A stretch of DNA of 64,000 nt from a virus. Lineage: Duplodnaviria > Caudoviricetes. The stretch is from the IMG/VR virus record IMGVR_UViG_3300020079_000007, positions 64,001 through 128,000 of that record; one strand, given 5' to 3'. The notes beneath the pieces were generated by a model. It had not been told where the DNA came from. It saw only the letters and a list, made by a program, of their open reading frames with translations, and ran no database searches. Positions 5,991 through 40,050 of the stretch are shown in pieces; within the stretch, counting starts at the first letter, position 1; each line of letters starts with the position of its first letter. A program made the position numbers and the translations under genes.

Positions 5991-6178
5991 AAATGGCACA
6001 GCTTTCAAAAAATGATATACTAACTAATTACTAAAACAATTTGTGTAGTGCTTAATATATGCAGATAAGCGGGAATTATATACCGCAAAAAGTAGGGTTT
6101 TATATATCTAAATATATCGTTCAAGTACACCACATTCTTGTTTTAATTTTCAACAATAAAATAAGGAAAGGTGAAAAA

Positions 6179-7810
6179 ATGAGTGCAACATCAGTAATTG
6201 CAGGTCAGAAAGACGCTGCAGCATTGCGTGAGGCAACAAGAAAAACTCTCGCAAAAACAGAAAGAGAATTCCGTGGAGCTAAGTTCGTAGAATCTTGGTC
6301 TCGTATCCCTAAAATCGGTGCAGGTTTGAATAAGCTTCCTGAAGCAGTAGCTCGTAACACAGCTATCAACCTTCAGACACAGGCTGCTTCAATGGCAAAA
6401 ATGACAGAAGCACAGCTTTCAACTTCATTCCAAGGTTTCACACCTGAGAATATGTTGAGACTTGTTCGTTTAGCAATGCCTAACACTTGCCGTAACAAGG
6501 TATTCACAGAGTTCGCTATGGAGTCAGCAAAGGACTCTATCAAATACATCAAACCTGTTTATTCAAAGACAGTTGATGGTAGTGATCTTCACGACAAGCA
6601 CACTGCTAACAAAGAAGGTGCTTATCAGGATGCATCAAAGTATAAAGATGTTTACAATGACATCAACGAAGACGATTTCCAGAGAGCTCTCTATGAGAAC
6701 ACTGAAGACCGCTTCACTCAGGAGCTTGTAAACATTCAGGGTACAGGTGGAGTGTTCACAATCCCTGCAACTCCTGCTGCTGATGCAAATCCTTTTGTTA
6801 AAGCATCAAAGCTCATCCCAGGTTATATGAAAGTATACGTTGGTGATGAAACACATCCAGTTGCTGAAGAGAACAAAAGAACAGGAAACTTCTTCGTAAA
6901 CACAGACGACTATCCTAACGCAAAAGTAACAAAGACTGTAGACGACGAAACTGGTGATATCACAATCGAAGTTGAAGGCGTTGAAGGCGACGTTAAAGTA
7001 TTTGCACGTTTCGATATGGAAGACGACTTCCTCGGAACAAACCTTGGTGAGATTGAACTCGTAATGAGCGACTACAAGTTTGAACCACGTCCAACAACAA
7101 TTGGTGTTACTTGGTCACAGCTTGCTGAAATCACTCTTGACGCTTCATTCGGTCTTTCAGCTCAGGATATGTTGGTACAGTATGCAGGTGATGCAATCCG
7201 TATCAATCTCGACCTCCGTTCATTCAAGCTTGCTTACGGTGTAGCTCGTTCAAACAAGGACTATATCGTTGAGTTCGATGCTGCTTATGGTAACGGTGAA
7301 AACATCGAAGGTTACTTCCACACAGCTCAGACATTCCCATCTGCAGTTGATACAGTAACTGACGTTATGGTAAACGACATCAACCGTGGTGGCGTTTCAA
7401 GAATGGTTGCAGGTTTCTCTGCAGGTTCTTACCTCAAACTCGTTAAGGGTACATTCTCTGACAAAGGCCGTCAGGCTGCAAAGGGTATTTACCAGATTGG
7501 TGAGTTCGGTGGAATCCCAACATTCAAGGCTCCTTCAAGCATTATCCCAACAAATGAGATTATGTGTGTATGGAAGGACGACGAAAACGAAGGCGACGTT
7601 GCAATCGCATTCGGTACATTGGTTCCATTCTTCAACACTGGTATCATCCAGAGAAAGAACTTCTATAAAGAAGCTGGTCTTGCAACATATGGTGACTGGG
7701 CAGTACTTAACAGACGTTATCTCGCTCTTATCCGTATCAAGGGATTGAAGGATACAACAGACGGCCGCGTAGGTGGTATGTTGAAATATTCACAGGGTCC
7801 AAAGGACTAA
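6179..7810 (+). CDS. Major capsid protein, T4 gp23-like
   Basis: MLRLVRLAMPN...FAMES (gp23 Gol-region-like), VTWSQLAEITL, FYKEAGLATYG; strongly biased codons; two hairpins downstream. Confidence 0.85.
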   Translation: MSATSVIAGQKDAAALREATRKTLAKTEREFRGAKFVESWSRIPKIGAGLNKLPEAVARNTAINLQTQAASMAKMTEAQLSTSFQGFTPENMLRLVRLAMPNTCRNKVFTEFAMESAKDSIKYIKPVYSKTVDGSDLHDKHTANKEGAYQDASKYKDVYNDINEDDFQRALYENTEDRFTQELVNIQGTGGVFTIPATPAADANPFVKASKLIPGYMKVYVGDETHPVAEENKRTGNFFVNTDDYPNAKVTKTVDDETGDITIEVEGVEGDVKVFARFDMEDDFLGTNLGEIELVMSDYKFEPRPTTIGVTWSQLAEITLDASFGLSAQDMLVQYAGDAIRINLDLRSFKLAYGVARSNKDYIVEFDAAYGNGENIEGYFHTAQTFPSAVDTVTDVMVNDINRGGVSRMVAGFSAGSYLKLVKGTFSDKGRQAAKGIYQIGEFGGIPTFKAPSSIIPTNEIMCVWKDDENEGDVAIAFGTLVPFFNTGIIQRKNFYKEAGLATYGDWAVLNRRYLALIRIKGLKDTTDGRVGGMLKYSQGPKD

Positions 7811-12164: not shown

Positions 12165-13787
12165 ATGACTGGTATATGTTATTTTGCAAACGATGAGGTT
12201 GAATACTTTGCAGAACAGCAAGTTAATTCAATCGTAAATGATATTGATGACGGCGCAACACTTATAAGAGAAAATGAAGCTTTCTCTCCTGAGCTTGTTG
12301 ATAATTTAATTGAAGAAGCTGCAAGTAAGAAATGTAATAAATTGGTTTTGATGGTTGAAGGTAAAAAGTATCATCAATACTCAAAAGTAATTCCTGAAGT
12401 TTACGGCGATATGTTTGAGTCAATCGAAGTTGTACCTGAAAACTTTGTAAGAGTTAGAGAAAGTAACAACTATGACTACTATGACGGAATGGAAGCAGAT
12501 GCTGTGTTCTGGGCAGATAAGTATGACGAATATGTTGACGCAGGAATGACTGACCCTGATGATGGCATTGTCGGATTTGTTGCAGGAAAGATTGATGAAG
12601 ACCATCCTTCTGACAGCCCAGAGCAATATGCTTCATTGGAAAGATGGGTTATGAGCATCCTTAAAGAAAAAGGATACTTTAAGATGCCGTGGATGACAGA
12701 AGCTCTTTTGAGAGAAAATGATACAGCTGCAAGAGGCGCTCAAGCTTTGCCTCAAAATGAACAAACACAGCAGGCAAAACCTGTTCAGCAAAATAATCAA
12801 CAACCATTCAACGATGCAGGTTCTGTTACATATATTCTTTGTGATGCTGCCCATATCAACCTTGCTAACATTAAAGCTTTTGATAATGATACAAAACCTC
12901 TTATAGGAAAGTTTAAATTACAAAATGTAAGAAGATCATTTACAACTGTTGATAGTGCAAGACTTGAAGGCGCGGCACTTAAAAGCCTGTTGGTTGAATA
13001 CCCAAAGAAAGTTGCAAACCTTGAAACTGTTGCACAGCAAATGTCACCTGATGCTCCAGACTTTTCACTTGAAGCAGATGGACAAATGACATTACAAGCA
13101 TTCTTACAAAAAGCAGGAACTGTAACACAAAAAGTAAAAGATGCTCAAGGTAATGAAGTTGAACAGCAAGTAAATACAGGCACAGGCGCAAATATAAACA
13201 TTTTTGCTCCTACAAAGCAGTATCAGTATTTAATGAAATTTGCAGGTGCTTACCAAAACATCCGTGTATTCAATCTTGGTAAGTCTTATGAAAATCAAAA
13301 TAACCAAAAGATTAACCAACTTATGGAAATTCTTTTGAACACAGATAAAGAACTTGAATACACAGGAAAAGAAGAAGATTGGGTTGCCGCTCAAAAAGAA
13401 GGTAAAAACAATCTTGATATGCAGTTTATCAATTATGTTCGTTCAATAATGAAATTTATGAACGAATACGCAAATTGTGATAGACGCAAGCCACACGATA
13501 AAGCAAAGCGCGAAAGTGAATTGATGAAAGCATTGAAAGATCAGCTTATGAAGTGGTCAGGCATTGGTAATGCAAAGAAAGAATTGAGTGACAACTCTGC
13601 AATTGCAAAGTTTGCTATTGAGACTTTTGATAAAGTTAAAGATGCTGCAAAGAAAGATTTACAGGGTAATGAAAAAGATAAGAATAAAGGTATGTTTGAT
13701 GAAAAACAAGCAAAAGACCGCAACCCTAAAAATATCTTTATGTGGAAACATTACGCTGAATTAAGAAAACTTCTTATTGATAGATAA
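12165..13787 (+). CDS. Hypothetical virion protein
   Basis: 540 aa; ACTAAT motif directly upstream; LIRE/VRE/LLRE motifs. Confidence 0.5.
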   Translation: MTGICYFANDEVEYFAEQQVNSIVNDIDDGATLIRENEAFSPELVDNLIEEAASKKCNKLVLMVEGKKYHQYSKVIPEVYGDMFESIEVVPENFVRVRESNNYDYYDGMEADAVFWADKYDEYVDAGMTDPDDGIVGFVAGKIDEDHPSDSPEQYASLERWVMSILKEKGYFKMPWMTEALLRENDTAARGAQALPQNEQTQQAKPVQQNNQQPFNDAGSVTYILCDAAHINLANIKAFDNDTKPLIGKFKLQNVRRSFTTVDSARLEGAALKSLLVEYPKKVANLETVAQQMSPDAPDFSLEADGQMTLQAFLQKAGTVTQKVKDAQGNEVEQQVNTGTGANINIFAPTKQYQYLMKFAGAYQNIRVFNLGKSYENQNNQKINQLMEILLNTDKELEYTGKEEDWVAAQKEGKNNLDMQFINYVRSIMKFMNEYANCDRRKPHDKAKRESELMKALKDQLMKWSGIGNAKKELSDNSAIAKFAIETFDKVKDAAKKDLQGNEKDKNKGMFDEKQAKDRNPKNIFMWKHYAELRKLLIDR

Positions 13788-14012
13788 TTATTTTTCTGCA
13801 AGATCTTTTGTGTAAGCGATTGTGAGTTGATTGTTTCTGACGAGTTTAAGCAACATTAAAGTTTTTGTTAATTCGTCAGTTATGATTAGTTCATCAGTAT
13901 TTGTTAAATGACACGGACATATTAAAGGGAAGCCTGCGTTTTTATATTTTTGATAAGCAAGAGTCGTTTCTGTACTTGTGCTAATCTTAAAAACGTGGCT
14001 TCCCACTTTCAT
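13788..14012 (-). CDS. Hypothetical protein
   Basis: 74 aa, TAATG coupling with the upstream gene. Confidence 0.5.
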   Translation of the reverse strand: MKVGSHVFKISTSTETTLAYQKYKNAGFPLICPCHLTNTDELIITDELTKTLMLLKLVRNNQLTIAYTKDLAEK

Positions 14013-14764
14013 TAGAATCTTCCTACTTCAGACCCAACTGCTTTATGAGAAATCTGACAACGAATCTGAAGTTCAGCTGCCTTTGCGATAATCTCTTTTG
14101 CATTTGTCAAGTCTTCAATGATTACCGATATACGGTTCTTATCACATTGAGCAGTCTGTGACTCAACATAATTTTTGTAAAAATTTTCAACATCATCAGC
14201 GTTCTTACAAACACACTGACAGTTTGAGAAAATATTTTTTGACATATCAAGGAATGCAAACATATTCTTTGGTGCTTCAGTATCACAATCAATTAACACA
14301 ACGTTGAAGTTTTCGTAAAACTGTTTTACACCTGAATAATTTATAGGCTTTCCTTTGAAAGCAAACTTTGGAGGCTGCTTACGGAATTCAACAGTCTCCT
14401 CATTCTGTAAATCGTGGGAAATATGAGAAATCATTGCAAAGAGAATCATTGACTCGTCAATACAATTTTTGTTTGCCATATCTTCACCGATGAAGAAACC
14501 ATACTTTTTTGAAAGAAGGAAGTCAATCCAATCATCTTCAAGTCCCTTTTCTTCAAGCTTCTTTTTTACATCTTCAAGAACAGCCTCGCATTCTTTTGTA
14601 AGGTCTTCTCTTGCAGGTTCTTTCTGTCCTTCAGGAATTGTAAACTTTCTTCCGTCATCTGAAAATCTAAACACGAGACCGTTCAAACCTTGAACCTGTC
14701 CTTCTGGGAAGTACTCCCAATCTAAGCTGTCCAACTTAAGCATTCTTTTTCCTCCAATCGTCAA
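14012..14764 (-). CDS. Hypothetical protein
   Basis: 250 aa ORF in an operon. Confidence 0.6.
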   Translation of the reverse strand: MTIGGKRMLKLDSLDWEYFPEGQVQGLNGLVFRFSDDGRKFTIPEGQKEPAREDLTKECEAVLEDVKKKLEEKGLEDDWIDFLLSKKYGFFIGEDMANKNCIDESMILFAMISHISHDLQNEETVEFRKQPPKFAFKGKPINYSGVKQFYENFNVVLIDCDTEAPKNMFAFLDMSKNIFSNCQCVCKNADDVENFYKNYVESQTAQCDKNRISVIIEDLTNAKEIIAKAAELQIRCQISHKAVGSEVGRF

Positions 14765-17391: not shown

Positions 17392-18069
17392 TTACTCTCC
17401 CATTACTTTTTCGTATTCGTCATAATCATCTGAATCCAACCAAGACTCAAATCCGTCATCAGGAGCTTTACCGTTTTCATCTCTCTGTTCGATTTTGATA
17501 AAAGCACCGCCCATTCCGAGAGTTTGTTCAACAACTTCAAGTCCCATCCCTGGAGCTGCAGTATCAAGGAACTGCTGAAGCTTGTTTACGAAATCAATAA
17601 AGTTTATTTGTGCGCTCTTGAACTTACCTTCTTTTAACAACTTTTTGCTTTCTGATATTCTTTCCATTGTTTTAAGATTTTCAAAAAGAAAGCCCTGTCC
17701 TGCAGAAAGGTCCTCAAGTTTTTTAAGTTCTGCATCGTCAATGTAAACTCTGTCTTCCATCTCAGATACATCTGAAGCCATTTCAAACAAACCTTTGATA
17801 GCTTGTTTCAAATCACCGCCCATATTCATCTCACCAATCTCGTCTTCATATTGCTGAGAAACATAAAAGCAAACTTTACCAGCCGCGTCTGGGTCTTCAT
17901 AGCCCGTTGCAGTAATGCCAACATTGAAGCCTGCACCACAATAAACAGTTATAGCAACTTCTTCGTGAACTGGGTCATCAGATGTTTTTGCTTTTGCTCT
18001 ATATGCTGCTCTAAGAAGGTCAGCCACTTTTGAATATGGAAGACCCTCTTCATTTTCAGTCATTTTCAT
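17392..18069 (-). CDS. Acidic hypothetical protein
   Basis: 225 aa; LFE/ISE/LKE motifs. Confidence 0.55.
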   Translation of the reverse strand: MKMTENEEGLPYSKVADLLRAAYRAKAKTSDDPVHEEVAITVYCGAGFNVGITATGYEDPDAAGKVCFYVSQQYEDEIGEMNMGGDLKQAIKGLFEMASDVSEMEDRVYIDDAELKKLEDLSAGQGFLFENLKTMERISESKKLLKEGKFKSAQINFIDFVNKLQQFLDTAAPGMGLEVVEQTLGMGGAFIKIEQRDENGKAPDDGFESWLDSDDYDEYEKVMGE

Positions 18070-18902
18070 AAATATCTCCTATTGATATTTAGTAACATTT
18101 CAAGGAATGCTTCAGGAGATATAATTGCTGTACCGAGTTTCTTTGCTTTTTCTGATTTTGCTGAGGTTGAGTCTGGGTCAGCCTGAACAAGATATGTAAG
18201 TGTTTTATTTATTGAGGAAACAGTTCCGCCGTTATCAACAACCATTTTTTCAAGGTCAGCTCGTTTGTAAGCCATTGCGCCTGTGAAGCAGAAACTCATT
18301 CCTGCAAGAACGCCACCTGCAACCTTTTCTTCTTCACCGATATTGCAAAGTTTTGATACTTCAAGCAGATCTTTTTTGATTTCTGACAAAGCCTGCAAAA
18401 CTTTAATGCCTGACTCCAAAGTCCAACCTTTGATATTTGATATGTCACGAGGATTTGCTTTTTCAAAGAAACTTTCGATTGTGTTGTAACCTGCGTCAAC
18501 TAAAGACTGCAAACGCTTTTCGCCGAAGTCTTCAATATCGAAAGCAGAGATAAAGTTGGCAAGTGTTCTTTTCTTTGACATTGCTGCCTTAAGATTTTTA
18601 CGGATTTTTTCGGCATTCTTGCCTGCGATTTTATCAAGAACTGGGCTGTCGATTTCACGAAGGAATTGTGCAAGGGATTTGATATTTGCTTCTTTTACAA
18701 AGTCTTCAACAACTCGTGGACCAATTTCAAGAACATTCCACTTATTTGACATCTTTATGATTGCGTGTTCAATCTTCTTTGCGCAGGAATCGTTTGGGCA
18801 AAAAACTTCTCCACTGTCATTGATTTCAAGTTCTGTGCCGCAGCAAGGGCAGACAGTAGGCATTCCCCAATTGTATTTTTTAGCAAGTTCTGATGCTTTC
18901 AT
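18066..18902 (-). CDS. C-terminal half of an NAD-dependent DNA ligase (Zn finger, HhH, BRCT)
   Basis: PTVCPCCG...FCPNDSC, HhH motifs, BRCT (FCFTGAM...GGTVSS...LTYLV...KAKKLG); no KxDG adenylation domain. Confidence 0.85.
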   Translation of the reverse strand: MKASELAKKYNWGMPTVCPCCGTELEINDSGEVFCPNDSCAKKIEHAIIKMSNKWNVLEIGPRVVEDFVKEANIKSLAQFLREIDSPVLDKIAGKNAEKIRKNLKAAMSKKRTLANFISAFDIEDFGEKRLQSLVDAGYNTIESFFEKANPRDISNIKGWTLESGIKVLQALSEIKKDLLEVSKLCNIGEEEKVAGGVLAGMSFCFTGAMAYKRADLEKMVVDNGGTVSSINKTLTYLVQADPDSTSAKSEKAKKLGTAIISPEAFLEMLLNINRRYL

Positions 18903-18933: not shown

Positions 18934-19380
18934 TTATTCAGGAAGTTTAATTGAAGACCAATTTTCTAACAACTTTTTTGCTTCTTTTTTAGAGTATTTT
19001 GGCTTTATATAGACAATTGAGTCTTTTTGTGTTTCCATTGAAAATTCAGAAAATATGCGATTTCTTATAGGAACACCTGGGCCTTTTTGAACATTCTTTT
19101 CAGACTCTTCAACATCCTTTTTATCGAAAAATGTTGGAAAGCGGTCAATAATTGTTTCAATTGCTTCTTCAGTAAGTTCAGCTTTTTGAGTGCCGTCTTC
19201 TCCAAAAACATATTGTTTTATTACTTCTTCTGGGTCGTTTTTGAAATCAATACTGCCGCTGAAAGGCATTTGAAGACGAACGAGTCTTAACATATTCTCA
19301 GGAGTAAACTAATTGAATGACGATGCCAATTCTTCTTCTGTTTTATTTTTCAAAGCAGCTGCCTCCCTTTCAAATATAGA
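18934..19380 (-). CDS. Major-capsid-fragment paralogue with an insertion and an in-frame TAG at 19309-19311
   Basis: TEEELASSFN*FTPENMLRLVRLQMP...RNRIFSEFSMETQKDSIVYIKPKYSK versus MCP TEAQLSTSFQGFTPENMLRLVRLAMP...RNKVFTEFAMESAKDSIKYIKPVYSK. Confidence 0.75.
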
Positions 19381-19387
19381 CCGTGCG

Positions 19388-19552
19388 TCAAATCTCCTCA
19401 ACAACTTCGTACCAATCCTTTCTTTTTGAGGTTTCAGCGTCTTTGTCAAATCCTGTCAAAGCCAACATTTGTTTATGAGCTGAGTCTTCTGTTGGCCAAG
19501 ATTCATAATAAGTTCTTTCACCTGATTTTGTTACGTGATAAATATTAAACAT
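19388..19552 (-). CDS. Small hypothetical protein (54 aa)
   Basis: MFNIYHVTKSGERTYYESWPTEDSAHKQML...EEI*; TAATG-coupled to the upstream gene; below the ORF-track cutoff. Confidence 0.55.
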   Translation of the reverse strand: MFNIYHVTKSGERTYYESWPTEDSAHKQMLALTGFDKDAETSKRKDWYEVVEEI

Positions 19553-20019
19553 TACTTCTTACCTCTCTTCTTTGGTTTAGTAAATTGTATTTTTTGAAGG
19601 TACAACTGATCTGATGGCGGAGCCATAGGTTTTTCTTTGAACAATTTACTTACTCTTTTATCAGAGTCGTGGTCAGCAAGTTCCAAGTCCTGTTCATCAA
19701 AGAATGTTGGGTACTTATCCAAAATCTTTTCAATTGTTTCTTCAGTAAGCTCGGCTTTATTACCGTCTCCAAAAACGATTTCTCTCAACTCTTCATAAGT
19801 ATAATCGTCAAGGTTGATATTTTCTAATGAACCACCTAATATCGCTGATGGGAATATTGGTCGAACCTGAAGCTGTGATATAGGGTCAGCTAAAGTAATA
19901 GCATTCCCGTTATTGCCAATAACGCCTGTTGTTACGACAGGAGCAAGTTTGCCATACACTACTTGCGGCGCATCATCATCTTTATTTTCATAAACAGTAA
20001 GCAAGGAGCCGTCAGGCAT
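19552..20019 (-). CDS. Hypothetical protein, paralogue of 18934..19293
   Basis: Shares VFG.G.KAELTEE.IE.I.D..PTFFD..D.E. Confidence 0.65.
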   Translation of the reverse strand: MPDGSLLTVYENKDDDAPQVVYGKLAPVVTTGVIGNNGNAITLADPISQLQVRPIFPSAILGGSLENINLDDYTYEELREIVFGDGNKAELTEETIEKILDKYPTFFDEQDLELADHDSDKRVSKLFKEKPMAPPSDQLYLQKIQFTKPKKRGKK

Positions 20020-20201: not shown

Positions 20202-20262
20202 ATAATGATATTAACAAAAAAGGCAGGCTTCGGCCTGCCAATAGAGTCCGAGACCCTAGATT

Positions 20263-21075
20263 TTATTTTGCATCTCCTGAAGAATCCATTTTTTCTTTTT
20301 CTCTTTCAATCAGTGCAGCTTTAAGTTTGATTGCTTCTTTTTCTCTTTCTTCAACCTTTGTCTTATCACCTGACTTCAAATTGAAAGTTTCATCTGTTGA
20401 CTTAATAATCTCAAGTTCCTGTTCAGTATAAGCAAGATCATAAATAACCTTTACATTACTTATGTAAACAACTGAAACATCATAACCTGTGATAGGGATT
20501 GTTCTTATGCGAATTGCTCTAATATAAAGTTCATTTGTTGCCTTTCCACCATAAGCTGGGTAATTCAAAACATCTCTTTTATTAGGGTCATCAACATATT
20601 CAAGGTTATCCCATTCAAGAACAACTTCACCAATAGTCTGCAAGTCGCCTTTGAATTTATATTCTTTACCTACTGGGTCATTTGGGTCAGTTGCTAAAAA
20701 TATTGATACTTCATCATTTCTGTTTATGCCATTAACTGTAATACCAAGTTTCTTTAATGTGCCAACATTTGTCAAGTAGCCAAACTCTTTATCAGCTTCA
20801 GTTATAATAGGATTGTATGGCGGCACAATGTCATAATACACATAACGATTTTCAGGAATGTTCTGAACACAAACAGCAAGTTTGCCATCAACAATCTTAA
20901 TCTGATAAGGAACTCCCTTAAGAGATGACATTGGACGAACTTCCCAATTTTCATAGGAATAACCATCAACTGCGTTTTCGATAAAAGTACTTGCATTAAG
21001 GAAAGTCTTTTCCTCAGCAAATGTTGTAAAACAAATTGCGAATAGCATTGCAAATATCGCAAACAACTTCTTCAT
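20263..21075 (-). CDS. flaA: Spirochete flagellar filament sheath (outer layer) protein FlaA
   Basis: Sec signal peptide; ENWEV, IVPPY, NVGTLKK, LEWDNLEYV, NVKVIYD match the spirochete FlaA pattern; adjacent to flagellin. Confidence 0.8.
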   Translation of the reverse strand: MKKLFAIFAMLFAICFTTFAEEKTFLNASTFIENAVDGYSYENWEVRPMSSLKGVPYQIKIVDGKLAVCVQNIPENRYVYYDIVPPYNPIITEADKEFGYLTNVGTLKKLGITVNGINRNDEVSIFLATDPNDPVGKEYKFKGDLQTIGEVVLEWDNLEYVDDPNKRDVLNYPAYGGKATNELYIRAIRIRTIPITGYDVSVVYISNVKVIYDLAYTEQELEIIKSTDETFNLKSGDKTKVEEREKEAIKLKAALIEREKEKMDSSGDAK

Positions 21076-21177
21076 TTATAATCTCCTCAAATTAAAGTAA
21101 GGGGAACCGAAGTTCCCCTAGTTAAGCTCTTTTTTAAATACTAGGCAACTACCCACCCAATTGAGCCTCAGTTGCCT

Positions 21178-22035
21178 TTACTGTAAAAGCTGCAATACAT
21201 TCTGTGACTGACTGTTTGCTTGCGCAAGCATTGCTGTTGAAGCCTGCTGAAGAATTGAATTCTTTGTGTAATCAACCATTTCTTTTGCCATATCAGCGTC
21301 GCGAATAATGCTTTCTGATGAAGTCATATTCTCTGCTGCAACGTTGATACCTTTTGCTGCCATCTCCATTCTGTTCTGAACAGCACCAAGGTCGGCTCTC
21401 TGTCTGTTTACATTCTTCAACGCTTCGTCGATTGTTGCAAGTGTACGGTTTGCTGTTTCAGTATCTGAAACTGATACAAGAGCTCCGTCTTCACCATCCT
21501 GCCCTTTTCCGCGAAGTCCCAAAGATTCAGCAGTTGCAGATGCAATGTTAATCTTGATGTTCTGGTCAACATTTGCGCCAACTTGGAAAGTGATTGAGTT
21601 GTCAGTTTCTTTTGCGAAACGACCTGTCAACATATTGTAGCCATTGAACTGAGCAGTAGATGCGATACGGTCAACTTCAGCAACAAGCTGTGAAACTTCT
21701 ACCTGAATTTGCATTCTGTCTTCATCGCTGTAAACACCATTTGATGCCTGAACAGCAAGTTCACGGATACGCTGCAAGATGTCTGTTGTTTCCTGAAGAT
21801 AGCCAGAAGTAACTTGTATGAAACTTATAGCATTTTCAGTATTTTTGCTTGCTTGATTAAGACCTCTGATTTGAGCTCTCAATTTTTCACTTATTGCAAG
21901 ACCAGCTGCATCGTCACTTGCTTTATTTATGCGTTGACCTGAAGATAATTTTTCAATAGAACTTTGAACTTCCTTTGCATTTATTCTCTCCATACGAGAG
22001 GCGAACATTGAACTAAGATTGTGATTGATAACCAT
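21178..22035 (-). CDS. flaB: Flagellin, spirochete periplasmic filament core FlaB type
   Basis: [14 protein letters not shown]...[24 protein letters not shown]...[13 protein letters not shown]...[11 protein letters not shown]...MLAQAN; 285 aa with no large variable domain, Treponema-like. Confidence 0.97.
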
Positions 22036-22056: not shown

Positions 22057-22917
22057 TCACTTCCGTGTTTTGTATGGCTTACAAAGTTTACCTGCAACAA
22101 AGCCAGATGGACATTCATAACAGAAAATGTTCTCTTTTCCATTATTGAACCAATGTTTTCCTTTTCCAAACTTTAAGCGAGCTTCATTTGCTTTCTTCTT
22201 AGTCTCTTCGTTGATAGGCTTTTGAAGTTTGCCTTTTTTGAAGCCTTCAGGACACTCAAAATCAAGAATATTTTCTTCACCATTATTGAACCAATGTTTT
22301 CCTCTATGAATATCTGCAAGCCTCTTAATTTGATTTTTGCATTTATCACTGTTCTTCATAGAAGTTTTTATATGCTCAATATGTTCGTCTGTTTTTTTAT
22401 GTCCTTTCAAAGATTTAGAAATATTATCATTCCAAGATTCTGTTCTTTCCACTGAGCTTAATTTCTTTGACATATTTTCTTTATATTCTTTAAGTGTTTG
22501 TTCATCCATTTCTCGTATAGCAGAACGACCATACATAGGATTCCCAGAACCAGAATATATTTTTGAAAAATGTTTCTTAACCTCGTCTGAACATATATGA
22601 CCTTTATTGAGTTCTGATGATGCTTGTCCTACCAAAACTCTCAATCGTTCATATTCCCTACTTGAAACTTTATGCTTACCTGAATGTGATAGCCTCCATA
22701 AAGCAAATATCATTCCTTTTGTAGGATAAATCTTTACCAAAAGCTGGTGGCAAAAATAATGTTCTCTTGCAGTTAAGAGCACTTGATTAGAAAGTCTATC
22801 TTTCCAAAGAGGGAATATTGACTTTGGAAGTATATGATGCTTCTCATAATAAGCACCATTCTTCTTTTCTCTTAATCCCAACTTTTGCTCATTCAAAGCT
22901 TTTGTAATAATTATCAT
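22057..22917 (-). CDS. Free-standing HNH homing endonuclease with NUMOD3-like and C-terminal repeats
   Basis: EKHHILPKS...NQVLLTAREHYFCHQLL; GNPMYG; two GKHWFNNG.ENI...ECP.GF..GKL repeats. Confidence 0.85.
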   Translation of the reverse strand: MIIITKALNEQKLGLREKKNGAYYEKHHILPKSIFPLWKDRLSNQVLLTAREHYFCHQLLVKIYPTKGMIFALWRLSHSGKHKVSSREYERLRVLVGQASSELNKGHICSDEVKKHFSKIYSGSGNPMYGRSAIREMDEQTLKEYKENMSKKLSSVERTESWNDNISKSLKGHKKTDEHIEHIKTSMKNSDKCKNQIKRLADIHRGKHWFNNGEENILDFECPEGFKKGKLQKPINEETKKKANEARLKFGKGKHWFNNGKENIFCYECPSGFVAGKLCKPYKTRK

Positions 22918-23062
22918 ATGAACGGATATTCGGCTAAAGACCGAATATCTTCCTAATCTTACGAGCCGAGTACTCGACTTGATGGATTAGAAACTTCGTG
23001 CTTCACAGCACTGCTTGGTGCTCCACACGCATTTGTACTTTCGGCTCGTTCCCTGCCTACTA
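22918..23062 (-). ncRNA. TnpB omega-RNA (reRNA) scaffold, orphan copy
   Basis: Near-identical to 39883-40027, with a compensatory CCTG/CAGG to CGTG/CACG change. Confidence 0.75.
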
Positions 23063-23219
23063 TGTCAGAGTCAAATCTGACTTCATTTTATGATTTGCAC
23101 CAGATAATACTGATCCCTGTGACTAACGTGGATTTCAATCATTTCTAATATAGTTAGTTGATTTTGAGCCTATTCAAATGTTTGGCTAAAGACCAAACAT
23201 TTTTCTAGGCTCGATTTCT
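22918..23219 (-). mobile_element. Non-autonomous IS200/IS605 derivative (left end + omega-RNA/right end, no ORFs)
   Basis: Reverse complement matches both ends of the 38201..40027 element: LE hairpin ATGTTTGG-TCTTTAG-CCAAACAT, about 145 nt of RE, ends TTCAT; preceded by TTTAC. Confidence 0.9.
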
Positions 23220-23244
23220 GTAAATATGAATGAAACTGTAAGCA

Positions 23245-23313
23245 CCTCCTAAGGCAAAAAAAGGTAGCATCCTTGCTACCTTATTATTATCGACATTTCA
23301 TATAAAAATATTA
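23245..23313 (-). promoter_or_regulatory. Sigma28-like promoter, CsrA-type hairpin and SD (flagellin-type leader)
   Basis: TAAT-N15-GTCGATAA (23313-23287; consensus TAAA-N15-GCCGATAA); stem AAGGTAGCA-AGGA-TGCTACCTT (23282-23261); AGGAGG at 23250-23245. Confidence 0.6.
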
Positions 23314-23328
23314 ACAATTATTTTTAAT

Positions 23329-23580: not shown

Positions 23581-24003
23581 CTACAGTATAGCATTAAGCC
23601 AATAAGGCAAAGTTATATTCCATTTTAATTTTAAAATCAGCGTTGCAATATGAAGTAAGAAAAAGCCGCCAAGTATCGCTACTACAATTGAAAGCCACTT
23701 AATAAGTAACTTATTTTTTGTTGTCAACTTTATAATTTCAGTTGTCTTTTTTGCGTCTTCTTCAATAGCTTTGTCCATCTTTTCAGTTGTGCTTGCGACT
23801 TTTTCTTTAAGTTCTTCAATCGTAACATCTTTACTGCTGTTTGTTGCACGAAGTTCATCGATGTAAATCTGTTGTGCTTTATAATTGTCTCTTAATTCTT
23901 GAACAATTACAGCAGTTGAGCGAGGAGCTTCAGCAGATGTTTGAGCAACACATACTGTGCCCAAACTGAAAATCATTGCAACAATTAAAAACAATTTTTT
24001 CAT
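23581..24003 (-). CDS. Spanin-like protein (signal peptide, coiled coil, C-terminal TM)
   Basis: Topology read from sequence; coupled to a lipoprotein gene. Confidence 0.45.
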   Translation of the reverse strand: MKKLFLIVAMIFSLGTVCVAQTSAEAPRSTAVIVQELRDNYKAQQIYIDELRATNSSKDVTIEELKEKVASTTEKMDKAIEEDAKKTTEIIKLTTKNKLLIKWLSIVVAILGGFFLLHIATLILKLKWNITLPYWLNAIL

Positions 24004-24377
24004 TACTTCTTCTCCTCTTCTTTATAAAGACCTTGCTTTTTCAATAATTCAATGACATCATTTAACTTAACATAGTCTTCTGTTGCGGCAATTGCATCTT
24101 TCTTTCCTGCATCATAGCCTTCATTAAAGGCTTGCTGCTTTTCGTATGCAATTGAAGTCTCAAGTTCATCAAGTAAGTCAAATCCATAAGTTGTAGCACT
24201 ATCAAGTTTCTCAAGGATTTCGACCTCTCTTACATTATCTTTTTTAAGTGAGTTAAGTTGCTCCAAAGTAATTGCAGTCCCTACCTTAGCATCGATAAGA
24301 TTATTATCTGCAACTTTGTTTGAAACACATCCGAAAAACAAAAAGCAACTTAATAATAGTACTGCAAACTTTTTCAT
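24003..24377 (-). CDS. Lipoprotein, spanin-like
   Basis: MKKFAVLLLSCFLFFG-C lipobox, coiled coil. Confidence 0.5.
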   Translation of the reverse strand: MKKFAVLLLSCFLFFGCVSNKVADNNLIDAKVGTAITLEQLNSLKKDNVREVEILEKLDSATTYGFDLLDELETSIAYEKQQAFNEGYDAGKKDAIAATEDYVKLNDVIELLKKQGLYKEEEKK

Positions 24378-24388
24378 TGTATCACTCC

Positions 24389-25132
24389 TTATTCAAATGC
24401 AGCTGCAAGTACTTCACCATAATTATCAAATCCACAATGAGGACAAACATCTTCATCGCCTCTTACAGGCTGTTCACAATGTGGGCAGATGTTTCCTGAC
24501 AACTTTGCTTTTTCCTCATCATAATACTTGAGGTATCTTTCATAATACTCTCTTCCGATATGATAGCCATCGTCTTTTGCATAATTTACAAAATCGATGA
24601 AACTGTCTATACGAACATCTCTTTCAGCATCGTGTCTTGCCATAATTCTACAGTATTCATCAATGTCATTTGATGTATCTGTGCTTTCCTGAAGCTTATC
24701 TTTTACAGTGATGTCTATTTCCCAGTGAAGCTTGTCACCAACTTCAGTTTTTGTTTTGAAGTAATGAATGCTGTTTATAACAAGACCGTCCTTACAGCTT
24801 TCAAATCCTGCCTTATCTTTTACAAGATAACCTCTGTAAGTATCAATAATTACAGGATAAGCATACCCTTTACTTACTGCTCTTGTGTAAAAGTTGTCTG
24901 CCCAAGTAATGTTGCCTGCCTGAACAAAAGCTGACTCAGGACATTCATCAAGCATCTCCTGTGTTACAACAGAAGGAAGAACTTCTTTACTCAAAATTTC
25001 AAAGCTACCAAAGATTGGCTTTACACATCTTTTGAGCTCAGTTGTTGTTGGGTATACACATTCAAGAACTTTGCCTTCATCAGTTTTAACTGTAAACTTA
25101 TACCAAGCTCTATATGATTCTACAATTCTCAT
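24389..25132 (-). CDS. Hypothetical protein with C-terminal double zinc ribbon
   Basis: CPHC...CPHC; IVES/LQES motifs. Confidence 0.6.
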   Translation of the reverse strand: MRIVESYRAWYKFTVKTDEGKVLECVYPTTTELKRCVKPIFGSFEILSKEVLPSVVTQEMLDECPESAFVQAGNITWADNFYTRAVSKGYAYPVIIDTYRGYLVKDKAGFESCKDGLVINSIHYFKTKTEVGDKLHWEIDITVKDKLQESTDTSNDIDEYCRIMARHDAERDVRIDSFIDFVNYAKDDGYHIGREYYERYLKYYDEEKAKLSGNICPHCEQPVRGDEDVCPHCGFDNYGEVLAAAFE

Positions 25133-25146
25133 TCTTTATCTCCTAA

Positions 25147-25926
25147 TTAACAACAAGTTGCGGCGCCTTTTGTAAAGTAATGTGCAACAGGTTTGATAAT
25201 GTCCAAAAGCTTTTCTCTTGGAATGTTTTCATCATTGCCTGAAACAGCAACATATTTTTTAGCTACAAAATCAAACTTACCGTAAGTGTTGTCAATAATA
25301 TATGTCTTAATCTTTGATAAATCAATTGTCTTATCTGTGACTTCATTGTAAGACTCAGGCTCAACGAATGAATCATCTGCAATAAAGCCAACAATTGAAA
25401 TATAATGGCCTTCTTTTTTCTTAAATGGGTCAACTGATGAAATTACAGGAAGGCCTTTTTTGCAAATCTGCCAAACAAGTTCATATTCATCAAACTCATT
25501 GTAAAAACGAGTTACAGGTCTTCTTTTCATTTCAGCAAGTTGCTTCGCAGTATACCCCATAAATAAATTAACTGCGTATGACATTACATCGTGTAACTCA
25601 TTTGGTGGATAAGAATTGATACAAGCAACTTCCCAATACTTTTTACCTTGGGCTTTTGCATTTGCTTTGGCTTCCCTCATCCAATTATTATACATTCCGT
25701 TGTAATGTGTTTCATAATACTTAAGAACATCCTTGTTTGTGCGGGTGAAATAAGTAATCTTATCATCAAGCTGTTTGAATTGCGGAACGATACCCATATC
25801 AGGTTCCCATCCCGCATAACCTAAACACTGTGCAAAGTTTGTAGGACCACAAACATTGACTCTGTCAATGTCATTGTTTCTTTGTGAAAAGTTGTCGTGT
25901 CCTGCAGATACATTGTACTCTTTCAT
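25147..25926 (-). CDS. Papain-like (C39-like) peptidase, possible endolysin
   Basis: SQRNN...CGPT, GHYISIVG, IIDNTYG; near holin-like and spanin-like genes. Confidence 0.6.
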   Translation of the reverse strand: MKEYNVSAGHDNFSQRNNDIDRVNVCGPTNFAQCLGYAGWEPDMGIVPQFKQLDDKITYFTRTNKDVLKYYETHYNGMYNNWMREAKANAKAQGKKYWEVACINSYPPNELHDVMSYAVNLFMGYTAKQLAEMKRRPVTRFYNEFDEYELVWQICKKGLPVISSVDPFKKKEGHYISIVGFIADDSFVEPESYNEVTDKTIDLSKIKTYIIDNTYGKFDFVAKKYVAVSGNDENIPREKLLDIIKPVAHYFTKGAATCC

Positions 25927-29364: not shown

Positions 29365-30417
29365 ATGTTAACGATTGATAAGTCAACTGAGTTGACTGTT
29401 CACGACTTTATTAAAAATAAAGAGTATAAGCCTTTCAAAGATTGGCGAACAGTTGCAAAAACTGAAAACTTCGGGTTACTTTTCGGTTGTTCAGCAGGAC
29501 GATTTGCTGTTATGTTGGAACAGGCAAACTTTACAGAAGCTGAATGTGAAGAGTATATCAAATTAAAAAATCTTACATCTGTTTATAACGCTGCACTTTC
29601 GAATGCAGGCGGTAAAAATCCAAAAGACGTTAAATTTGTTGTTGTTGCAGACGATATGCGTGAGTCATTCTTCAAGTCGTATGAAGGATTGATGGACCGT
29701 ATCAAACGAGAACAAATGTTTGCTCTTGCTCACGGTTATGTTCGAGCTTGGCACGGACCTGTTCGTCATCTTGCTGAACTTCGTTTTATGTCTGTAAATG
29801 ACCAAGGAAACTTGACAGGCGCTGACCGTTCTTTATATTCAAAGATGTTTGCTCACTTGTTAAACAACGCTTGTAACTCAACTATTCAATCAATGGAAGC
29901 CCGCATCGCTTTCTCAACTTGGTTGAATACTTCAAAGTATCTTGCTCTTTGGGGATTGAAATCATATTGTTGGAACAACATTCACGACTCTCTTGACTTT
30001 TATGTTTGGAAGCCAGAGTTGCAACTTGTTATGTCTTTGGCAAATGCTTGTGCTGCTTGGGACCGTGAACCTGTAAAAGGTATTCATATGTCTTTTGATG
30101 GAGAAGTTTCTGATGTTCAGGATTACGAACACCGCTGCAACACATACTATAAAGCGGGCGTAGGTTATGACCCACTTCCAATTGAAGAAGCAATCAAAAA
30201 CTATAATGCAAAGAATGGCACTAACCTTAAGTGGTATGGTTGTGATTGGCTTTATGATAAATATATGCCAAACAGAGATGAGTTTTATAAATACTACTGT
30301 AATCTTAATGGCAAGTTGAATGTTGATGAATTCATCAAATCTTGGGGCGGTGTAATTCCTGAAGGTGTTGAAGTTGTTGAAATGCAAAAGCCTGCTAGGA
30401 GAATAATCAATGGATAA
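29365..30417 (+). CDS. Family A DNA polymerase, C-terminal fragment (motifs B and C)
   Basis: RTVAKTENFGLLFG, GYVRAWHGPVR, NSTIQS, NNIHDSL. Confidence 0.85.
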   Translation: MLTIDKSTELTVHDFIKNKEYKPFKDWRTVAKTENFGLLFGCSAGRFAVMLEQANFTEAECEEYIKLKNLTSVYNAALSNAGGKNPKDVKFVVVADDMRESFFKSYEGLMDRIKREQMFALAHGYVRAWHGPVRHLAELRFMSVNDQGNLTGADRSLYSKMFAHLLNNACNSTIQSMEARIAFSTWLNTSKYLALWGLKSYCWNNIHDSLDFYVWKPELQLVMSLANACAAWDREPVKGIHMSFDGEVSDVQDYEHRCNTYYKAGVGYDPLPIEEAIKNYNAKNGTNLKWYGCDWLYDKYMPNRDEFYKYYCNLNGKLNVDEFIKSWGGVIPEGVEVVEMQKPARRIING

Positions 30418-30652: not shown

Positions 30653-31242
30653 TGGCAGCAACACGAAGAAGTAAGGCTGAGATTGAAGCAGAGAAAAAAG
30701 CAAAGCTTGAGCGTAAACTCGAAAGAGAAAGAAAAAAGGCTGAAAAGGAAGCTAAAGCAAAAGCTCGTGAAGAAAAGAAAGCTGCAAAAGAAGCAAAGTT
30801 GAAAGCAAAAGAAGAAGCTGCAAAAGCTAAAGAATTGCAAAAACTTGAAGATGAAAAAATTCAAAAGATTATTGATAAGCTTAAAGTTGGGAAAGAATAC
30901 GCCCAGCCTAAGCCTATGACAATAAAAGAAAAGGACTTGTGCAAAAAGATTTTGGAAGGCGCAGTTCTTTCAATTTGTAGTCAAACTTATGGTCAACATT
31001 CTTTTAACATTTTGTCACATAGAGGGAATGAATTCGTAATAAGCATTGATAGTATTTATTACTTTTACAACAAAGCAAAGAACACAGGCATAAACTTTGG
31101 AAGTGTTTTTGAAACTTGGCTTGAAAGTTGTAAAAGAATTCCTTGGACAGAGTCGGAGCCTTCAATATTGACTAATCAAGTCATTCAGATAACAGAGGGT
31201 GTTAATTTAACTACTACAAAGAAAAAGAGAGGTAAGAAATAA
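30652..31242 (+). CDS. Hypothetical protein with Lys/Ala/Glu-rich helical N-terminus
   Basis: KAEKEAKAKAREEKKAAKE repeats. Confidence 0.6.
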   Translation: MAATRRSKAEIEAEKKAKLERKLERERKKAEKEAKAKAREEKKAAKEAKLKAKEEAAKAKELQKLEDEKIQKIIDKLKVGKEYAQPKPMTIKEKDLCKKILEGAVLSICSQTYGQHSFNILSHRGNEFVISIDSIYYFYNKAKNTGINFGSVFETWLESCKRIPWTESEPSILTNQVIQITEGVNLTTTKKKRGKK

Positions 31243-33302
31243 TGGCGTTTACGTTTGGGGGTATTCGCGAAAATACAAAAGCTAAGGACTTGCTTAAGCC
31301 GTCTGATATTCTCGATTATGTTATTGAAGATCACTTCGATGAAGATGAAAAAGATTATTTTATTTTCTTACTTGACAAGTTCCCTGCTGAAGATAAAAAG
31401 CAGCTTATCTTAAAACGTATCCGTGATGCGGGTTATCGTTCTTATAAAGTTTTAGTTGCTGTTGATTGCAAATATAAAGAAGATGACTTGAAGGGCGGAA
31501 GTATTGTTGAGTTTATGATGACTCACCGTTCAGGTTGGAGAAAAGATATTGATTGTGCAGGAACACATTGCCGCGCCATAATGGCTTTCGGTTGTGCTAT
31601 GTATTCAATCAACTGTTCTGCTGATATTTTGACAGGTGACTTTTATGATGATAAGATGTTAAGACCTTATTATTATATGGGTCACGAAATCTTCAAGTAT
31701 GATACTTATATATTCCCAGTTGATGGCATTGAAGAATTGTACCCAACAATTAAGTCATCATCTAATTCAGTGAATTATAAAACAAAGTTTTTCTACTCAC
31801 AGGTCTCAAGAATGCGTAAGACACCTTATGAATGGGAGCCAATGTTTTTATCATCTGACCCAAAGTTTATTTCAGTCAATTCAAAAGAAGAAGCAGACCA
31901 AGTATTCAAAGACAATATGGACAAGTACTTGGTTGCGTTCGATACTGAAACAAACGGCTTGAAGTTTTATGAAAATTATATTCACTGTCTTACAATTTGT
32001 TGGGACGGTCTTAAGGGATATTTCATTCCTTGGAAATATGTTGATGTAAAATTGTTTGAAGAAAATGTTATGTCTTGTCAGCATCGCACAGGTGCCAACC
32101 CTAAGTTCGATATTAAGTTCTTTTGGAAACACGGTGTATCAAGACGCGTAAATGTTACAGATGCAACAGATAGGCTTGCGCACTGTATTACATCTGAAGT
32201 TAGGTCAGGTTTGAAGCCACTTGCGTATCGTTATTCACCTTTCGGCGGTTATGATATTAAGCTTGACAAATGGAAGAAACAAACAAAGTGTGATGACTAT
32301 ACAAAAATTCCTAATGACATCCTTGCTCCTTACGCAACAATGGACGCTTTGGTTACTTGGAGAATTCAGTGTGAGTTGTGGACACTTGTTGATGAAATCG
32401 ATAGAAACTTCCCTAACGAAAAATATCCTGAGTGGACAATTCGCCGTTGGTATGAAACACAGATGATGGAAATTTACAAAGAAATTTGTAATGTTGAATA
32501 TCGCGGTATTTATGTTAACTGGGAATTGATGGAAAAGTACCGTTGTGAAATGGTTGAAGATTTGCGAAAGAAAGATGAAGAGCTTCGTAAAATATGGGGT
32601 GTTGATAACAACTTCAACATTTCATCAACAACTGAAGTAGGTAAGTTGTTTGAAAAACTTGGATGGACTTGCTGCGGTCGTAATGAGGCAGGTGTTTATC
32701 TTACAGGTGATGAAGCTATGGGTACTTGGTCAAGAGAGAAACGCCCAGGAGTTGATTTGCTTGCTGAATACCGAACTGAAAAAACTTCGCTTGGTTCTTT
32801 CGTAGGACTCGATCCTGCTATGTGGCAAACACATAAAGATTGGCCTGAATGGTTGAAACCTAAAGAAACTACAGGTTGGCTTCAATACATTTATCACGAT
32901 GAAAACGATGGTAATCCTGAAGAAGGTGGCTCATATCGAGTTCAGCAGTCTTATCTTGTAATGGGAACAGAAACTTATCGTTTCATCGGTAAAGATCCAA
33001 ACTTCCAAAACATCCCTACACGCAACAAGTATGCAGGATTTGTAAAGAAGTGTATTGATACTCCGCCTGCTGATTTGTACACAATCGTAGGCAGTGATGG
33101 CAAGGAATATAATCTTGCGGAGTTTGAGCTTGTTTACACAAATGAAGGCTATAAAACTGCAAAAGAATGTTTCTCAAAAATGAGAAGTTTGCAATTTATT
33201 GATAAAGACCCAGAACATCCTGCAGTTATAAGATGTGGATTTGATAAACAAGAAGACGGATCTTTCAAAAAGCCAGACCCAAAAATTTGGTTTGAAGCAT
33301 AA
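31242..33302 (+). CDS. Family A DNA polymerase, N-terminal fragment (3'-5' exonuclease, thumb, start of palm)
   Basis: FDTETNGL, NPKFDIK, YATMDA, VEYRGI, FNISST, PNFQNIP; ends without a canonical motif A. Confidence 0.88.
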   Translation: MAFTFGGIRENTKAKDLLKPSDILDYVIEDHFDEDEKDYFIFLLDKFPAEDKKQLILKRIRDAGYRSYKVLVAVDCKYKEDDLKGGSIVEFMMTHRSGWRKDIDCAGTHCRAIMAFGCAMYSINCSADILTGDFYDDKMLRPYYYMGHEIFKYDTYIFPVDGIEELYPTIKSSSNSVNYKTKFFYSQVSRMRKTPYEWEPMFLSSDPKFISVNSKEEADQVFKDNMDKYLVAFDTETNGLKFYENYIHCLTICWDGLKGYFIPWKYVDVKLFEENVMSCQHRTGANPKFDIKFFWKHGVSRRVNVTDATDRLAHCITSEVRSGLKPLAYRYSPFGGYDIKLDKWKKQTKCDDYTKIPNDILAPYATMDALVTWRIQCELWTLVDEIDRNFPNEKYPEWTIRRWYETQMMEIYKEICNVEYRGIYVNWELMEKYRCEMVEDLRKKDEELRKIWGVDNNFNISSTTEVGKLFEKLGWTCCGRNEAGVYLTGDEAMGTWSREKRPGVDLLAEYRTEKTSLGSFVGLDPAMWQTHKDWPEWLKPKETTGWLQYIYHDENDGNPEEGGSYRVQQSYLVMGTETYRFIGKDPNFQNIPTRNKYAGFVKKCIDTPPADLYTIVGSDGKEYNLAEFELVYTNEGYKTAKECFSKMRSLQFIDKDPEHPAVIRCGFDKQEDGSFKKPDPKIWFEA

Positions 33303-38152: not shown

Positions 38153-38346
38153 AATCTAATTAGTCATAAAAAAGGAGGCCGAAGCCTCCTTGGAGTTTAT
38201 AAAAAGCGAGCGTAGAAAAATGTTTGGTCTTTAGCCAAACATATGAATACGCTCAATCTTTTCAAACTATATTAACTAAATATTATATATTTTAGAAACA
38301 CTAACTAAATATATAAAAGGTACTAACTAATATAAGGAGAAACAAA

Positions 38347-38775
38347 ATGAGAGAACTACAAACAAACTCACATTGCAAAAACTTGATTTTGTATCATCTC
38401 ATCTTCGTATGCAAATACAGAAGAAAATGTTTCTCTAATACTGATTTTGCAGAAAATCTAAAACTTCAGTTTTTTGAAATAGCAAAGAAATATGATTTTG
38501 AAATAGACACAATAGACTTAGATTACTCAAAGCCAGACCATATTCATATTCTTGTAAGAAGTGTTCCTAAACTAAGTCCATTGCAGATTGTAAGAGTTTT
38601 GAAACAGCAAGCAAACTATTGGGCTTGGCAAAACTATGAAACTTACCTAAAACAGTTCTATTGGAGAGCACATCATCTTTGGACAAGAGGATATTTCTGC
38701 TCAACAGTTGGTAATGTATCTGCTGATACATTTCACGAATACTTAGAAAGACAAGGGAGGAATGAACAATGCTAA
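38347..38775 (+). CDS. tnpA: Y1 HUH transposase TnpA
   Basis: YHLIFVCKYRR, DHIHIL, LWTRGYF, EYLERQ. Confidence 0.95.
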   Translation: MRELQTNSHCKNLILYHLIFVCKYRRKCFSNTDFAENLKLQFFEIAKKYDFEIDTIDLDYSKPDHIHILVRSVPKLSPLQIVRVLKQQANYWAWQNYETYLKQFYWRAHHLWTRGYFCSTVGNVSADTFHEYLERQGRNEQC

Positions 38776-39986: not shown

Positions 39987-40050
39987 GATTAGGAAGATAT
40001 TCGGTCTTTAGCCGAATATCCGTTCACTATGTCTACATTATGAATGTATT

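Follow-up and report, generated by a model that had tools for sequence, protein, structure and literature searches.

The window analysed here is the 64,000-nt stretch at bases 64001-128000 of a 188,745-bp IMG/VR virus record (IMGVR_UViG_3300020079_000007, CheckV completeness 65%). It carries, in tandem, a gene for a spirochete-type core flagellin (FlaB) and a gene for a compact FlaA-family sheath protein, i.e., core and sheath proteins of the spirochete periplasmic flagellum within a tailed-phage genome (Table 1). Based upon these two genes and their relatives, we consider it probable that the host machinery exports both phage subunits and that these co-assemble into the periplasmic flagella of the infected cell, whose motility and shape would be kept or re-tuned. 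The initial annotation, made from the letters of the sequence, had described an intact 285-aa flagellin and a signal-peptide FlaA homologue side by side among phage genes, and the open reading frames (ORFs), Pfam searches and synteny all agreed with this description. In full-text literature searches, no paper was found that describes a spirochete FlaB or FlaA encoded by a phage.

Both flagellin domains of FlaB were recognized by Pfam (Flagellin_N, 1.7e-42, 145.3 bits against a cut-off of 26.6; Flagellin_C, 8.8e-26, 90.5 bits against a cut-off of 23). The best matches among solved structures were Treponema denticola FlaB3 (10pp_A, E = 7e-106) and FlaB1 (10pl_Ba, E = 3e-103), to which the phage protein was aligned over its full length. 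It has the same length and the same D0-D1-only architecture as FlaB3 (TDE1475, 285 aa, PDB 10PP) and, like FlaB3, a short loop without the S152 insert of FlaB1. The gene has its own ribosome-binding site (AAGGAG, 8 nt, ATG). Unlike the adjacent FlaA, FlaB has no Sec signal; in spirochetes, FlaB leaves the cytoplasm through the flagellar export apparatus and FlaA through Sec.

Cryo-EM filament structures of T. denticola published in 2026 define key glycosylation and contact residues of FlaB (PMC13439194), and these were mapped onto 120 FlaBs of the phage clade. Glycosylation sites S115, S126 and T137 were invariant (120/120) and a serine or threonine was present at position 166 in 115 of the 120; these sites (S115, S126, T137 and S/T166-167), together with the core contacts, are common to the phage protein and T. 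denticola FlaB1 (PDB 10PL) and FlaB3. The longitudinal and lateral core contacts Q88, R91, E92, R222 and E224 were likewise invariant and D106 was kept in 118 sequences. The aspartate that contacts FlaA, D157, did not vary, and the second contact, N146, was asparagine in 61 of the 120. Phage FlaBs also have a signature of their own (L16E, S44A, T166S, M167A, Y219V/I, Q238T and I/V at the equivalent of R244). Given that the key residues are kept alongside clade-specific substitutions, the phage FlaB looks capable of polymerizing, of being glycosylated and of bearing a sheath, and is not a plain host copy.

Selection was assessed using the ratio of nonsynonymous to synonymous substitution rates (dN/dS, omega). 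Pairwise values for FlaB ranged from 0.06 to 0.22. For FlaA, the unsaturated pairs gave 0.00 (dS 0.148 with zero amino acid changes), 0.094 and 0.076, for a range of 0.00-0.10. Judged from these ratios, both flaB and flaA are under purifying selection.

The FlaA-like protein scored 40.4 bits with Pfam PF04620, for which the cut-off is 25; the match covers residues 98-215 only, and the threshold was also passed in its relatives. In a sequence search of the PDB, it matched T. denticola FlaA in the solved filaments (9pim, E = 4e-11; 10pl, E = 7e-11). Its N-terminus (MKK, a hydrophobic run, then TFA|EE) reads as a typical Sec signal, a reading made by eye with no dedicated predictor run, and the signal was kept in a four-sequence alignment. 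A FlaA fold, the lack of which had been named beforehand as a ground for abandoning the identification, was recovered. The AlphaFold2 model (predicted local distance difference test 87.8, predicted template modelling score 0.84) shows a β-sandwich and, at the C-terminus, two helices, and the top Foldseek matches were the FlaA1 chains of 9cyn (E = 1e-9, target TM score 0.60), followed by generic β-sandwiches of carbohydrate-binding modules. The phage protein thus shares its β-sandwich and C-terminal helices with FlaA1 (PDB 9CYN), and its Sec signal, mature N-terminus (EE) and homologous C-terminal two thirds with T. denticola FlaA (PDB 10PL, 9PIM). A complex prediction of FlaB with mature FlaA returned a score of 0.00, which gives no verdict and counts neither for nor against binding.

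A FlaA profile was searched against 1.84 billion representatives. Approximately 30 full-length short forms (265-295 aa) were recovered, to which the bacterial FlaAs (310-450 aa) align over the C-terminal two thirds only. In a tree, 31 short FlaAs formed one clade (support 99) that holds all seven verified phage copies. Two deep short-form members, P0139 and P0131, lie on contigs too short for a phage or host call, so that it is not established that every short FlaA is phage-borne. The FlaA of the window is 23-27% identical to bacterial FlaAs, which share 42-67% identity among themselves.

The pair is not an artefact of assembly. It lies more than 84 kb from both contig ends, as follows from the place of the window within the 188,745-bp record, and the GC profile is flat over the flaB/flaA region. 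An identical FlaB occurs on 25 contigs, the longest of 224 kb, and relatives 85-95% identical lie on contigs of about 300 kb. A phage-like context of flaB was seen in loci L003, L004, L005/6, L095, L097/98, L099, L139, L140 and L141, and assemblies drawn independently of one another from NCBI, ENA, JGI, Logan and IMG/VR showed the same context. As the initial annotation had proposed, the pair was sought in related phage contigs and found in most of them, with flaA usually zero to two genes downstream of flaB (L003, L004, L005/6, L095, L099, L140). Both genes are also carried by the relative G001, whose genome of 300,878 bp is complete and has direct terminal repeats. This shared synteny, the 25 identical copies and the complete genome exclude a chimeric assembly. 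The best FlaB identity in 151 Treponemataceae genomes was 63-70%. In G001 itself, flaA lies approximately 47-52 kb from flaB (loci L103, G001:C1:48313-48747, and L156, G001:C1:100525-100935), and the pair is therefore not invariably an operon.

The neighbours are of phage type. They include a helicase, the C-terminal half of an NAD-dependent ligase, an HNH homing endonuclease, a split DNA polymerase (PolA) and a 5'-3' exonuclease, and further genes for Metallophos, UvsX/RecA, a DnaB-type helicase, a clamp loader, SbcC, a baseplate wedge match and additional homing endonucleases. The pair sits within this replication and recombination module, and a search of the whole contig gave one Flagellin_N match and one FlaA match in total.

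Trees of both proteins, which had been suggested as a check, each gave a single well-supported group. The 120 best database matches to the window FlaB were 71-100% identical to it, and 23 representatives of these were placed in an unrooted tree of 106 sequences. All 23 fell into one clade (Shimodaira-Hasegawa-like approximate likelihood ratio test 99) nested in a starred clade of Treponemataceae FlaB paralogues, and every clade member whose context was examined was phage-borne, including the basal P0108. This pattern fits a gene taken up once from a Treponema-like host that has since diversified at length in phages; since the tree is unrooted, the direction of transfer is an inference. The earlier suggestion of long residence in phages holds, and is better borne out by the single, diverse clade that each gene makes up across phages; the argument it had drawn from FlaA divergence is weak when taken alone, given that bacterial FlaAs are themselves only 42-67% identical to one another. 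Relative to Treponema FlaBs, the window copy is phage-encoded, no more than 70% identical to any in the 151 Treponemataceae genomes, marked by the clade signature and recombinant.

The phage is a jumbo phage of approximately 300 kb, and its hosts, judged from phylogeny, would be Treponema-like spirochetes of the gut or rumen. No tyrosine integrase (PF00589) was found in genomes G000-G003, the complete G001 included (serine recombinases were not searched), and the phage is therefore probably virulent. Its description as T4-like is only loosely supported, since the capsid, terminase and sheath proteins were not recognized by Pfam, PHROGs or PDB sequence searches, which mostly came back blank for capsid, terminase and tail genes. 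A T4-like (Straboviridae-like) phage would have a gp23-type capsid, a gp17-type terminase and contractile tail genes; the only matches obtained were UvsX-like, clamp-loader and baseplate-wedge (phrog_6, 2e-11). A candidate capsid gene at 6059-7810 gave no Pfam or PDB sequence match. The phage TnpB was tried as a clue to the host and was uninformative (at most 34% identity in the 151 Treponemataceae genomes).

A host-style leader lies upstream of flaB. It comprises a TTAA element (23314-23311), a 16-nt spacer and GTCGATAA (23294-23287), followed by a hairpin with AGGA in its loop (23282-23261) and an AGGAGG (23250-23245). The mapped sigma28 promoter of T. denticola flaB2 is TTAA / CCGATAA (PMC9481697). 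No exact match to the sigma28 consensus was found in the window, the leader motif being one mismatch off the consensus -10 element; the L097 leader has the consensus form, TAAA-N16-GCCGATAA. Upon folding, two leader hairpins were obtained, each of which presents a GGA, and the second displays the AGGAGG Shine-Dalgarno sequence. The 75 nt of the window at 23316-23242 match the leader of L095 (95% identity to L095:4921-4993), which directly abuts the flaB ATG without insertions. A GGA-in-loop hairpin followed by a GGA-containing Shine-Dalgarno sequence recurs in five different leader types, the layout being the same despite sequence change. In the L005 type, the stem carries compensatory substitutions and there is no T-run, which argues that the hairpin is not merely a terminator. 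A scan of 19.8-23.7 kb with Rfam gave nothing meaningful.

This arrangement of two GGA loops, one of them at the ribosome-binding site, is that of flagellin leaders under CsrA control. In T. denticola, fliW-csrA is present and the flaB genes carry CsrA sites (PMC9481697). No FliW, FliS, CsrA or sigma-70-family factor was found in G000-G003, again including the complete genome, and the small ORFs that lie next to flaB and flaA or separate them in the relatives, considered as FliS, FliW or FlaG, had no Pfam match. Taken together, the phage flaB appears to be plugged into host flagellar control and to rely on host chaperones, export and glycosylation.

The proposed course of events has four steps; that the genes are expressed, that their products are exported and co-assemble, and in which direction motility would change are all inferred. 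First, host RNA polymerase would transcribe flaB from the host-style flagellar leader, which in the relatives abuts flaB and combines a sigma28-like promoter with two GGA hairpin-loop motifs of the kind bound by CsrA. FlaB would then be handled by host FliS and FliW, leave by flagellar type III export, be glycosylated by the host and polymerize at the growing distal tip. FlaA would be exported to the periplasm by Sec, where it would coat the FlaB core. Finally, the infected cell would keep building its filament, or a filament of altered composition, through a long jumbo-phage infection, and motility and cell shape would be sustained or re-tuned to the benefit of the phage. The clade-specific substitutions of FlaB and the compactness of FlaA slightly favour remodelling over plain re-supply.

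The nearest published precedent for this logic is FRphi, a temperate Enterobacter siphovirus that encodes its own flagellin, FliC-P, together with an RNA-guided repressor, TldR, which silences host fliC (PMC13418256). TldR is a nuclease-dead relative of TnpB that guides this repression, and FRphi acts during lysogeny upon an external flagellum (PMC13418256). The likeness lies in a phage-borne flagellin isoform and, as proposed here, a changed composition of the host filament. Unlike FRphi, the present phage has a genome of about 300 kb and yielded no tyrosine integrase; the flagellum in question is sheathed and lies in the periplasm, and the phage encodes a sheath protein alongside its flagellin. 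No TldR/TnpB-like ORF adjoins flaB among the window ORFs, and the only TnpB is that of a full IS200/IS605 copy 17 kb away. A second parallel is offered by auxiliary phage genes, such as cyanophage psbA, that re-supply a structural or metabolic protein of the host during infection. Like such genes, the flagellar genes derive from the host, are maintained by purifying selection in a lineage of lytic phages and group in a phage-specific clade; they differ in that the product is a secreted, polymerizing organelle subunit that needs host export, chaperones and glycosylation.

The phage clade also encodes enzymes of cyclic di-GMP metabolism, which may provide a second handle on host motility. A 334-aa GGDEF protein is encoded elsewhere in the contig (G000:C1:4263-5267, outside the window), GGDEF is also present in G001 (L153), and the 326-kb relative L140 has a GGDEF-EAL protein (12981-14333) four genes from flaB. 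In a fuller version of the preferred reading, the phage FlaB and the compact FlaA would form a phage-type sheathed distal segment of the filament in infected Treponema, the cyclic di-GMP enzymes would help to reprogram swimming or shape, and homing endonucleases would shuffle the alleles, all within a clade of virulent jumbo phages. This whole picture is put forward tentatively, as possible rather than probable.

Several observations weigh against co-assembly as proposed. Position 16 is glutamate in all 120 phage FlaBs, as against leucine in 88% of bacterial FlaBs, and the position of the FlaB1 lateral-contact residue R244 is isoleucine or valine in 110 of the 120; changes at these two positions could weaken or alter assembly. 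The bacterial FlaAs compared are 319-395 aa in length, and the 270-aa phage FlaA, in its separate short-form clade, lacks three segments of the N-terminal half. By our own reading of the alignment, several lattice-contact residues of T. denticola FlaA are not kept: D271 and K280 have equivalents in the phage protein, and R292, R306 and K317 have none. Neither the full-length bacterial FlaA architecture (approximately 320-400 aa) nor its set of lattice contacts is thus seen in the phage protein, which, given its length, its missing segments, its 23-27% identity and its partial contact residues, is best regarded as a compact variant of the family. FlaA may also be dispensable, as it was not found in the available DNA of the L100/L141 subclade or in the 70% complete G002; a 279-aa ORF that follows flaB in L100 and L141 was considered as a FlaA and ruled out (hhalign probability 0.3). 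In the window, leader and flaB are separated by 1.2 kb (a miniature insertion sequence and the HNH gene), so that any CsrA control at the old Shine-Dalgarno sequence is lost. Phylogeny is the sole basis of the host assignment, and one relative was binned with Clostridia. This near-complete relative (L003/L007, JAZNWZ010000130.1, 306,108 bp) lies inside a 'Candidatus Fimenecus' metagenome-assembled genome (GCA_045593645.1), a placement that is most likely a binning error and not a host signal.

The same departures could be read as a brake on motility, in which co-assembled phage subunits would poison or alter the filament and the infected cell would stop swimming or change shape, for example so as to remain where hosts are dense or to provide space for large capsids inside a thin cell. 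The changes at otherwise conserved sites (L16E in 120/120, I/V at the R244 equivalent in 110/120, Y219V/I and M167A), the compact FlaA without its three segments and the predicted GGDEF diguanylate cyclase gene would all suit such a role, as cyclic di-GMP commonly lowers motility. The invariance of the polymerization, glycosylation and sheath-contact residues and the low omega over the whole protein exceed what a simple cap or poison would need, and we regard a brake as unlikely, if the best of the alternatives.

Improbable to a slightly greater degree is a regulatory decoy, with cytoplasmic FlaB binding host FliW and/or FliS, shifting the FliW-CsrA switch and reprogramming translation while assembly is incidental. 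It draws upon the CsrA-type GGA hairpins of the flaB leaders, the fliW-csrA system and CsrA sites at the flaB genes of T. denticola (PMC9481697), the finding of no phage fliW or csrA in G000-G003 and the reported association of some flagellin-remodelling prophage loci with csrA (PMC13418256). Such titration, one of four functions offered in the initial annotation, explains neither a conserved, Sec-exported FlaA nor invariant surface glycosylation sites and inter-subunit contacts, and a self-repressing leader would limit over-production.

A second of those functions, an appendage of the virion, would make FlaB and FlaA a fibre or decoration on the particle, and most structural genes of the phage are indeed unrecognized by annotation. 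It is disfavoured by the conserved, cleavable Sec signal, which would take FlaA out of the cytoplasm where tailed-phage particles assemble, and by the place of the genes in the replication and recombination module behind a host-type flagellar leader; FlaB also keeps the residues of host-type filament packing. We consider a virion structure very improbable. Alteration of a filament used by competing phages, a third proposal, is unlikely, as flagella of the periplasm are hidden from the outside of the cell; the fourth, remodelling of host motility or shape, fits best. Recent passenger DNA, an assembly chimera or a functionless, decaying gene has next to no standing and is already contradicted, for although mobile elements (HNH and the miniature insertion sequence) crowd the flaB locus, the 25 identical copies, the synteny across five assembly sources, the single deep clade for each gene, the intact frames, an omega well below 1 and the flat GC profile all speak against it.

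Table 1. Features of the flaB/flaA locus (positions in the window)
Feature	Position	Strand	Size	Remarks
flaB	21178..22035	-	285 aa	Spirochete-type core flagellin, D0 + D1 only; Pfam
flaA-like	20263..21075	-	270 aa	Compact FlaA-family sheath protein; Pfam PF04620
FlaA Sec signal peptide	21016..21075	-	codons 1-20	Read from sequence
Spacer, flaB to flaA			102 nt	
GC-rich hairpin	21100..21119	-		Between flaB and flaA; weaker than the hairpin after flaA; possible attenuator or partial terminator; pattern scan
Terminator-like hairpin	20222..20239	-	7 bp, 6 GC	Followed by T-run; closes the flaB-flaA unit
Host-style flaB leader	23242..23316	-		Predicted sigma28-like promoter, two hairpins; putative function
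Recombinant 5' flaB segment	21796..22035	-	codons 1-80, 240 nt	GC 35% vs 43% for the rest
HNH/NUMOD3 homing endonuclease gene	22057..22917	-	286 aa	Immediately upstream of flaB; PHROG 655, 8.7e-35
Miniature IS200/IS605	22915..23224	-		Protein-free; between leader and HNH gene

The flaB of the window is a recombinant of two phage alleles, as judged from identities along the gene. Codons 1-80 have 96% amino acid identity to L141 and 65-69% to L095 and L003, whereas for codons 81-285 the identity is 96-98% with L095 and L003 (98% for L095) and 73% with L141. In 60-nt bins from the ATG, nucleotide identity to L095 was 71, 53, 75 and 56%, and then 91-100% through flaA; the FlaA protein is 100% identical to that of L095. 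Approximately 240 nt separate the breakpoint from the neighbouring HNH gene, a distance that suggests co-conversion associated with homing. HNH genes also stand beside flaB in L003 (9286-10011, upstream) and L141 (8956-9702, downstream), the HNH genes of the three lineages being only 33-44% identical among themselves, and no HNH gene was found at flaB in L095. Thus flaB looks like a homing hot spot, and the pattern suggests repeated homing-endonuclease activity at this gene together with allele exchange among co-infecting phages.

The miniature element between leader and HNH gene is absent from L095. Its ends match those of a full IS200/IS605 copy at 38196-40031 (one at 85% over 79 nt, the other at 97% over 151 nt), which encodes TnpA (38347-38775) and TnpB (38769-39986; HTH, OrfB_IS605 and TNB domains). 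The right end of IS605 elements encodes the guide-RNA scaffold, and the 151-nt right end of the miniature element, 97% identical to the full copy, corresponds to this region. A guide RNA directed from the miniature element against host flaB was considered and rejected, as its flank, compared by eye with typical starts of Treponema flaB, departs from them at 5 of 16 positions.

Some further genes of the window were recorded. The ligase neighbour is a lone 278-aa protein (18066-18902) that covers only the C-terminal part of an NAD-dependent DNA ligase (HhH and BRCT; profile positions 385-653 of 656), and no adenylation domain was found adjacent to it. The family A DNA polymerase is divided between ORFs at 29365-30417 and 31242-33302, which match different parts of the Pfam model and are separated by two small ORFs; L003 and L005 show the same division. 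Envelope-type genes form a run directly upstream of the flaB leader (23581-25926) that is syntenic in L003. They encode a C39-like peptidase (25147-25926), a zinc-ribbon protein, a lipoprotein-like product of 124 aa in which FFGC resembles a lipobox, and a product of 140 aa that combines a signal sequence, a coiled coil and a C-terminal transmembrane segment. A PHROG search of these genes gave no matches, and the run may be a lysis or spanin cassette. Downstream of flaA, the ORFs at 18934-19293 and 19552-20019 share a motif (EDGTQKAELTEEAIETIIDRFPTFFDKKD and GDGNKAELTEETIEKILDKYPTFFDEQD, respectively) and had no family match.

Until now, the action of a phage flagellin had been demonstrated for an external flagellum, by a temperate phage of enterobacteria (PMC13418256). 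Here, a large and apparently virulent lineage of spirochete phages has kept core and sheath proteins of the periplasmic flagellum while diversifying deeply. Were the subunits to be incorporated, the virus would be rebuilding an internal organelle of motility and cell shape. To our knowledge, few phages are known for Treponema hosts of the gut and rumen, and flaB/flaA may serve as a marker for assigning jumbo phages to such hosts in gut and rumen metagenomes. The natural variant FlaB/FlaA pairs would also offer a test of how core-sheath coupling sets filament curvature, a question newly open to structural work (PMC13439194).

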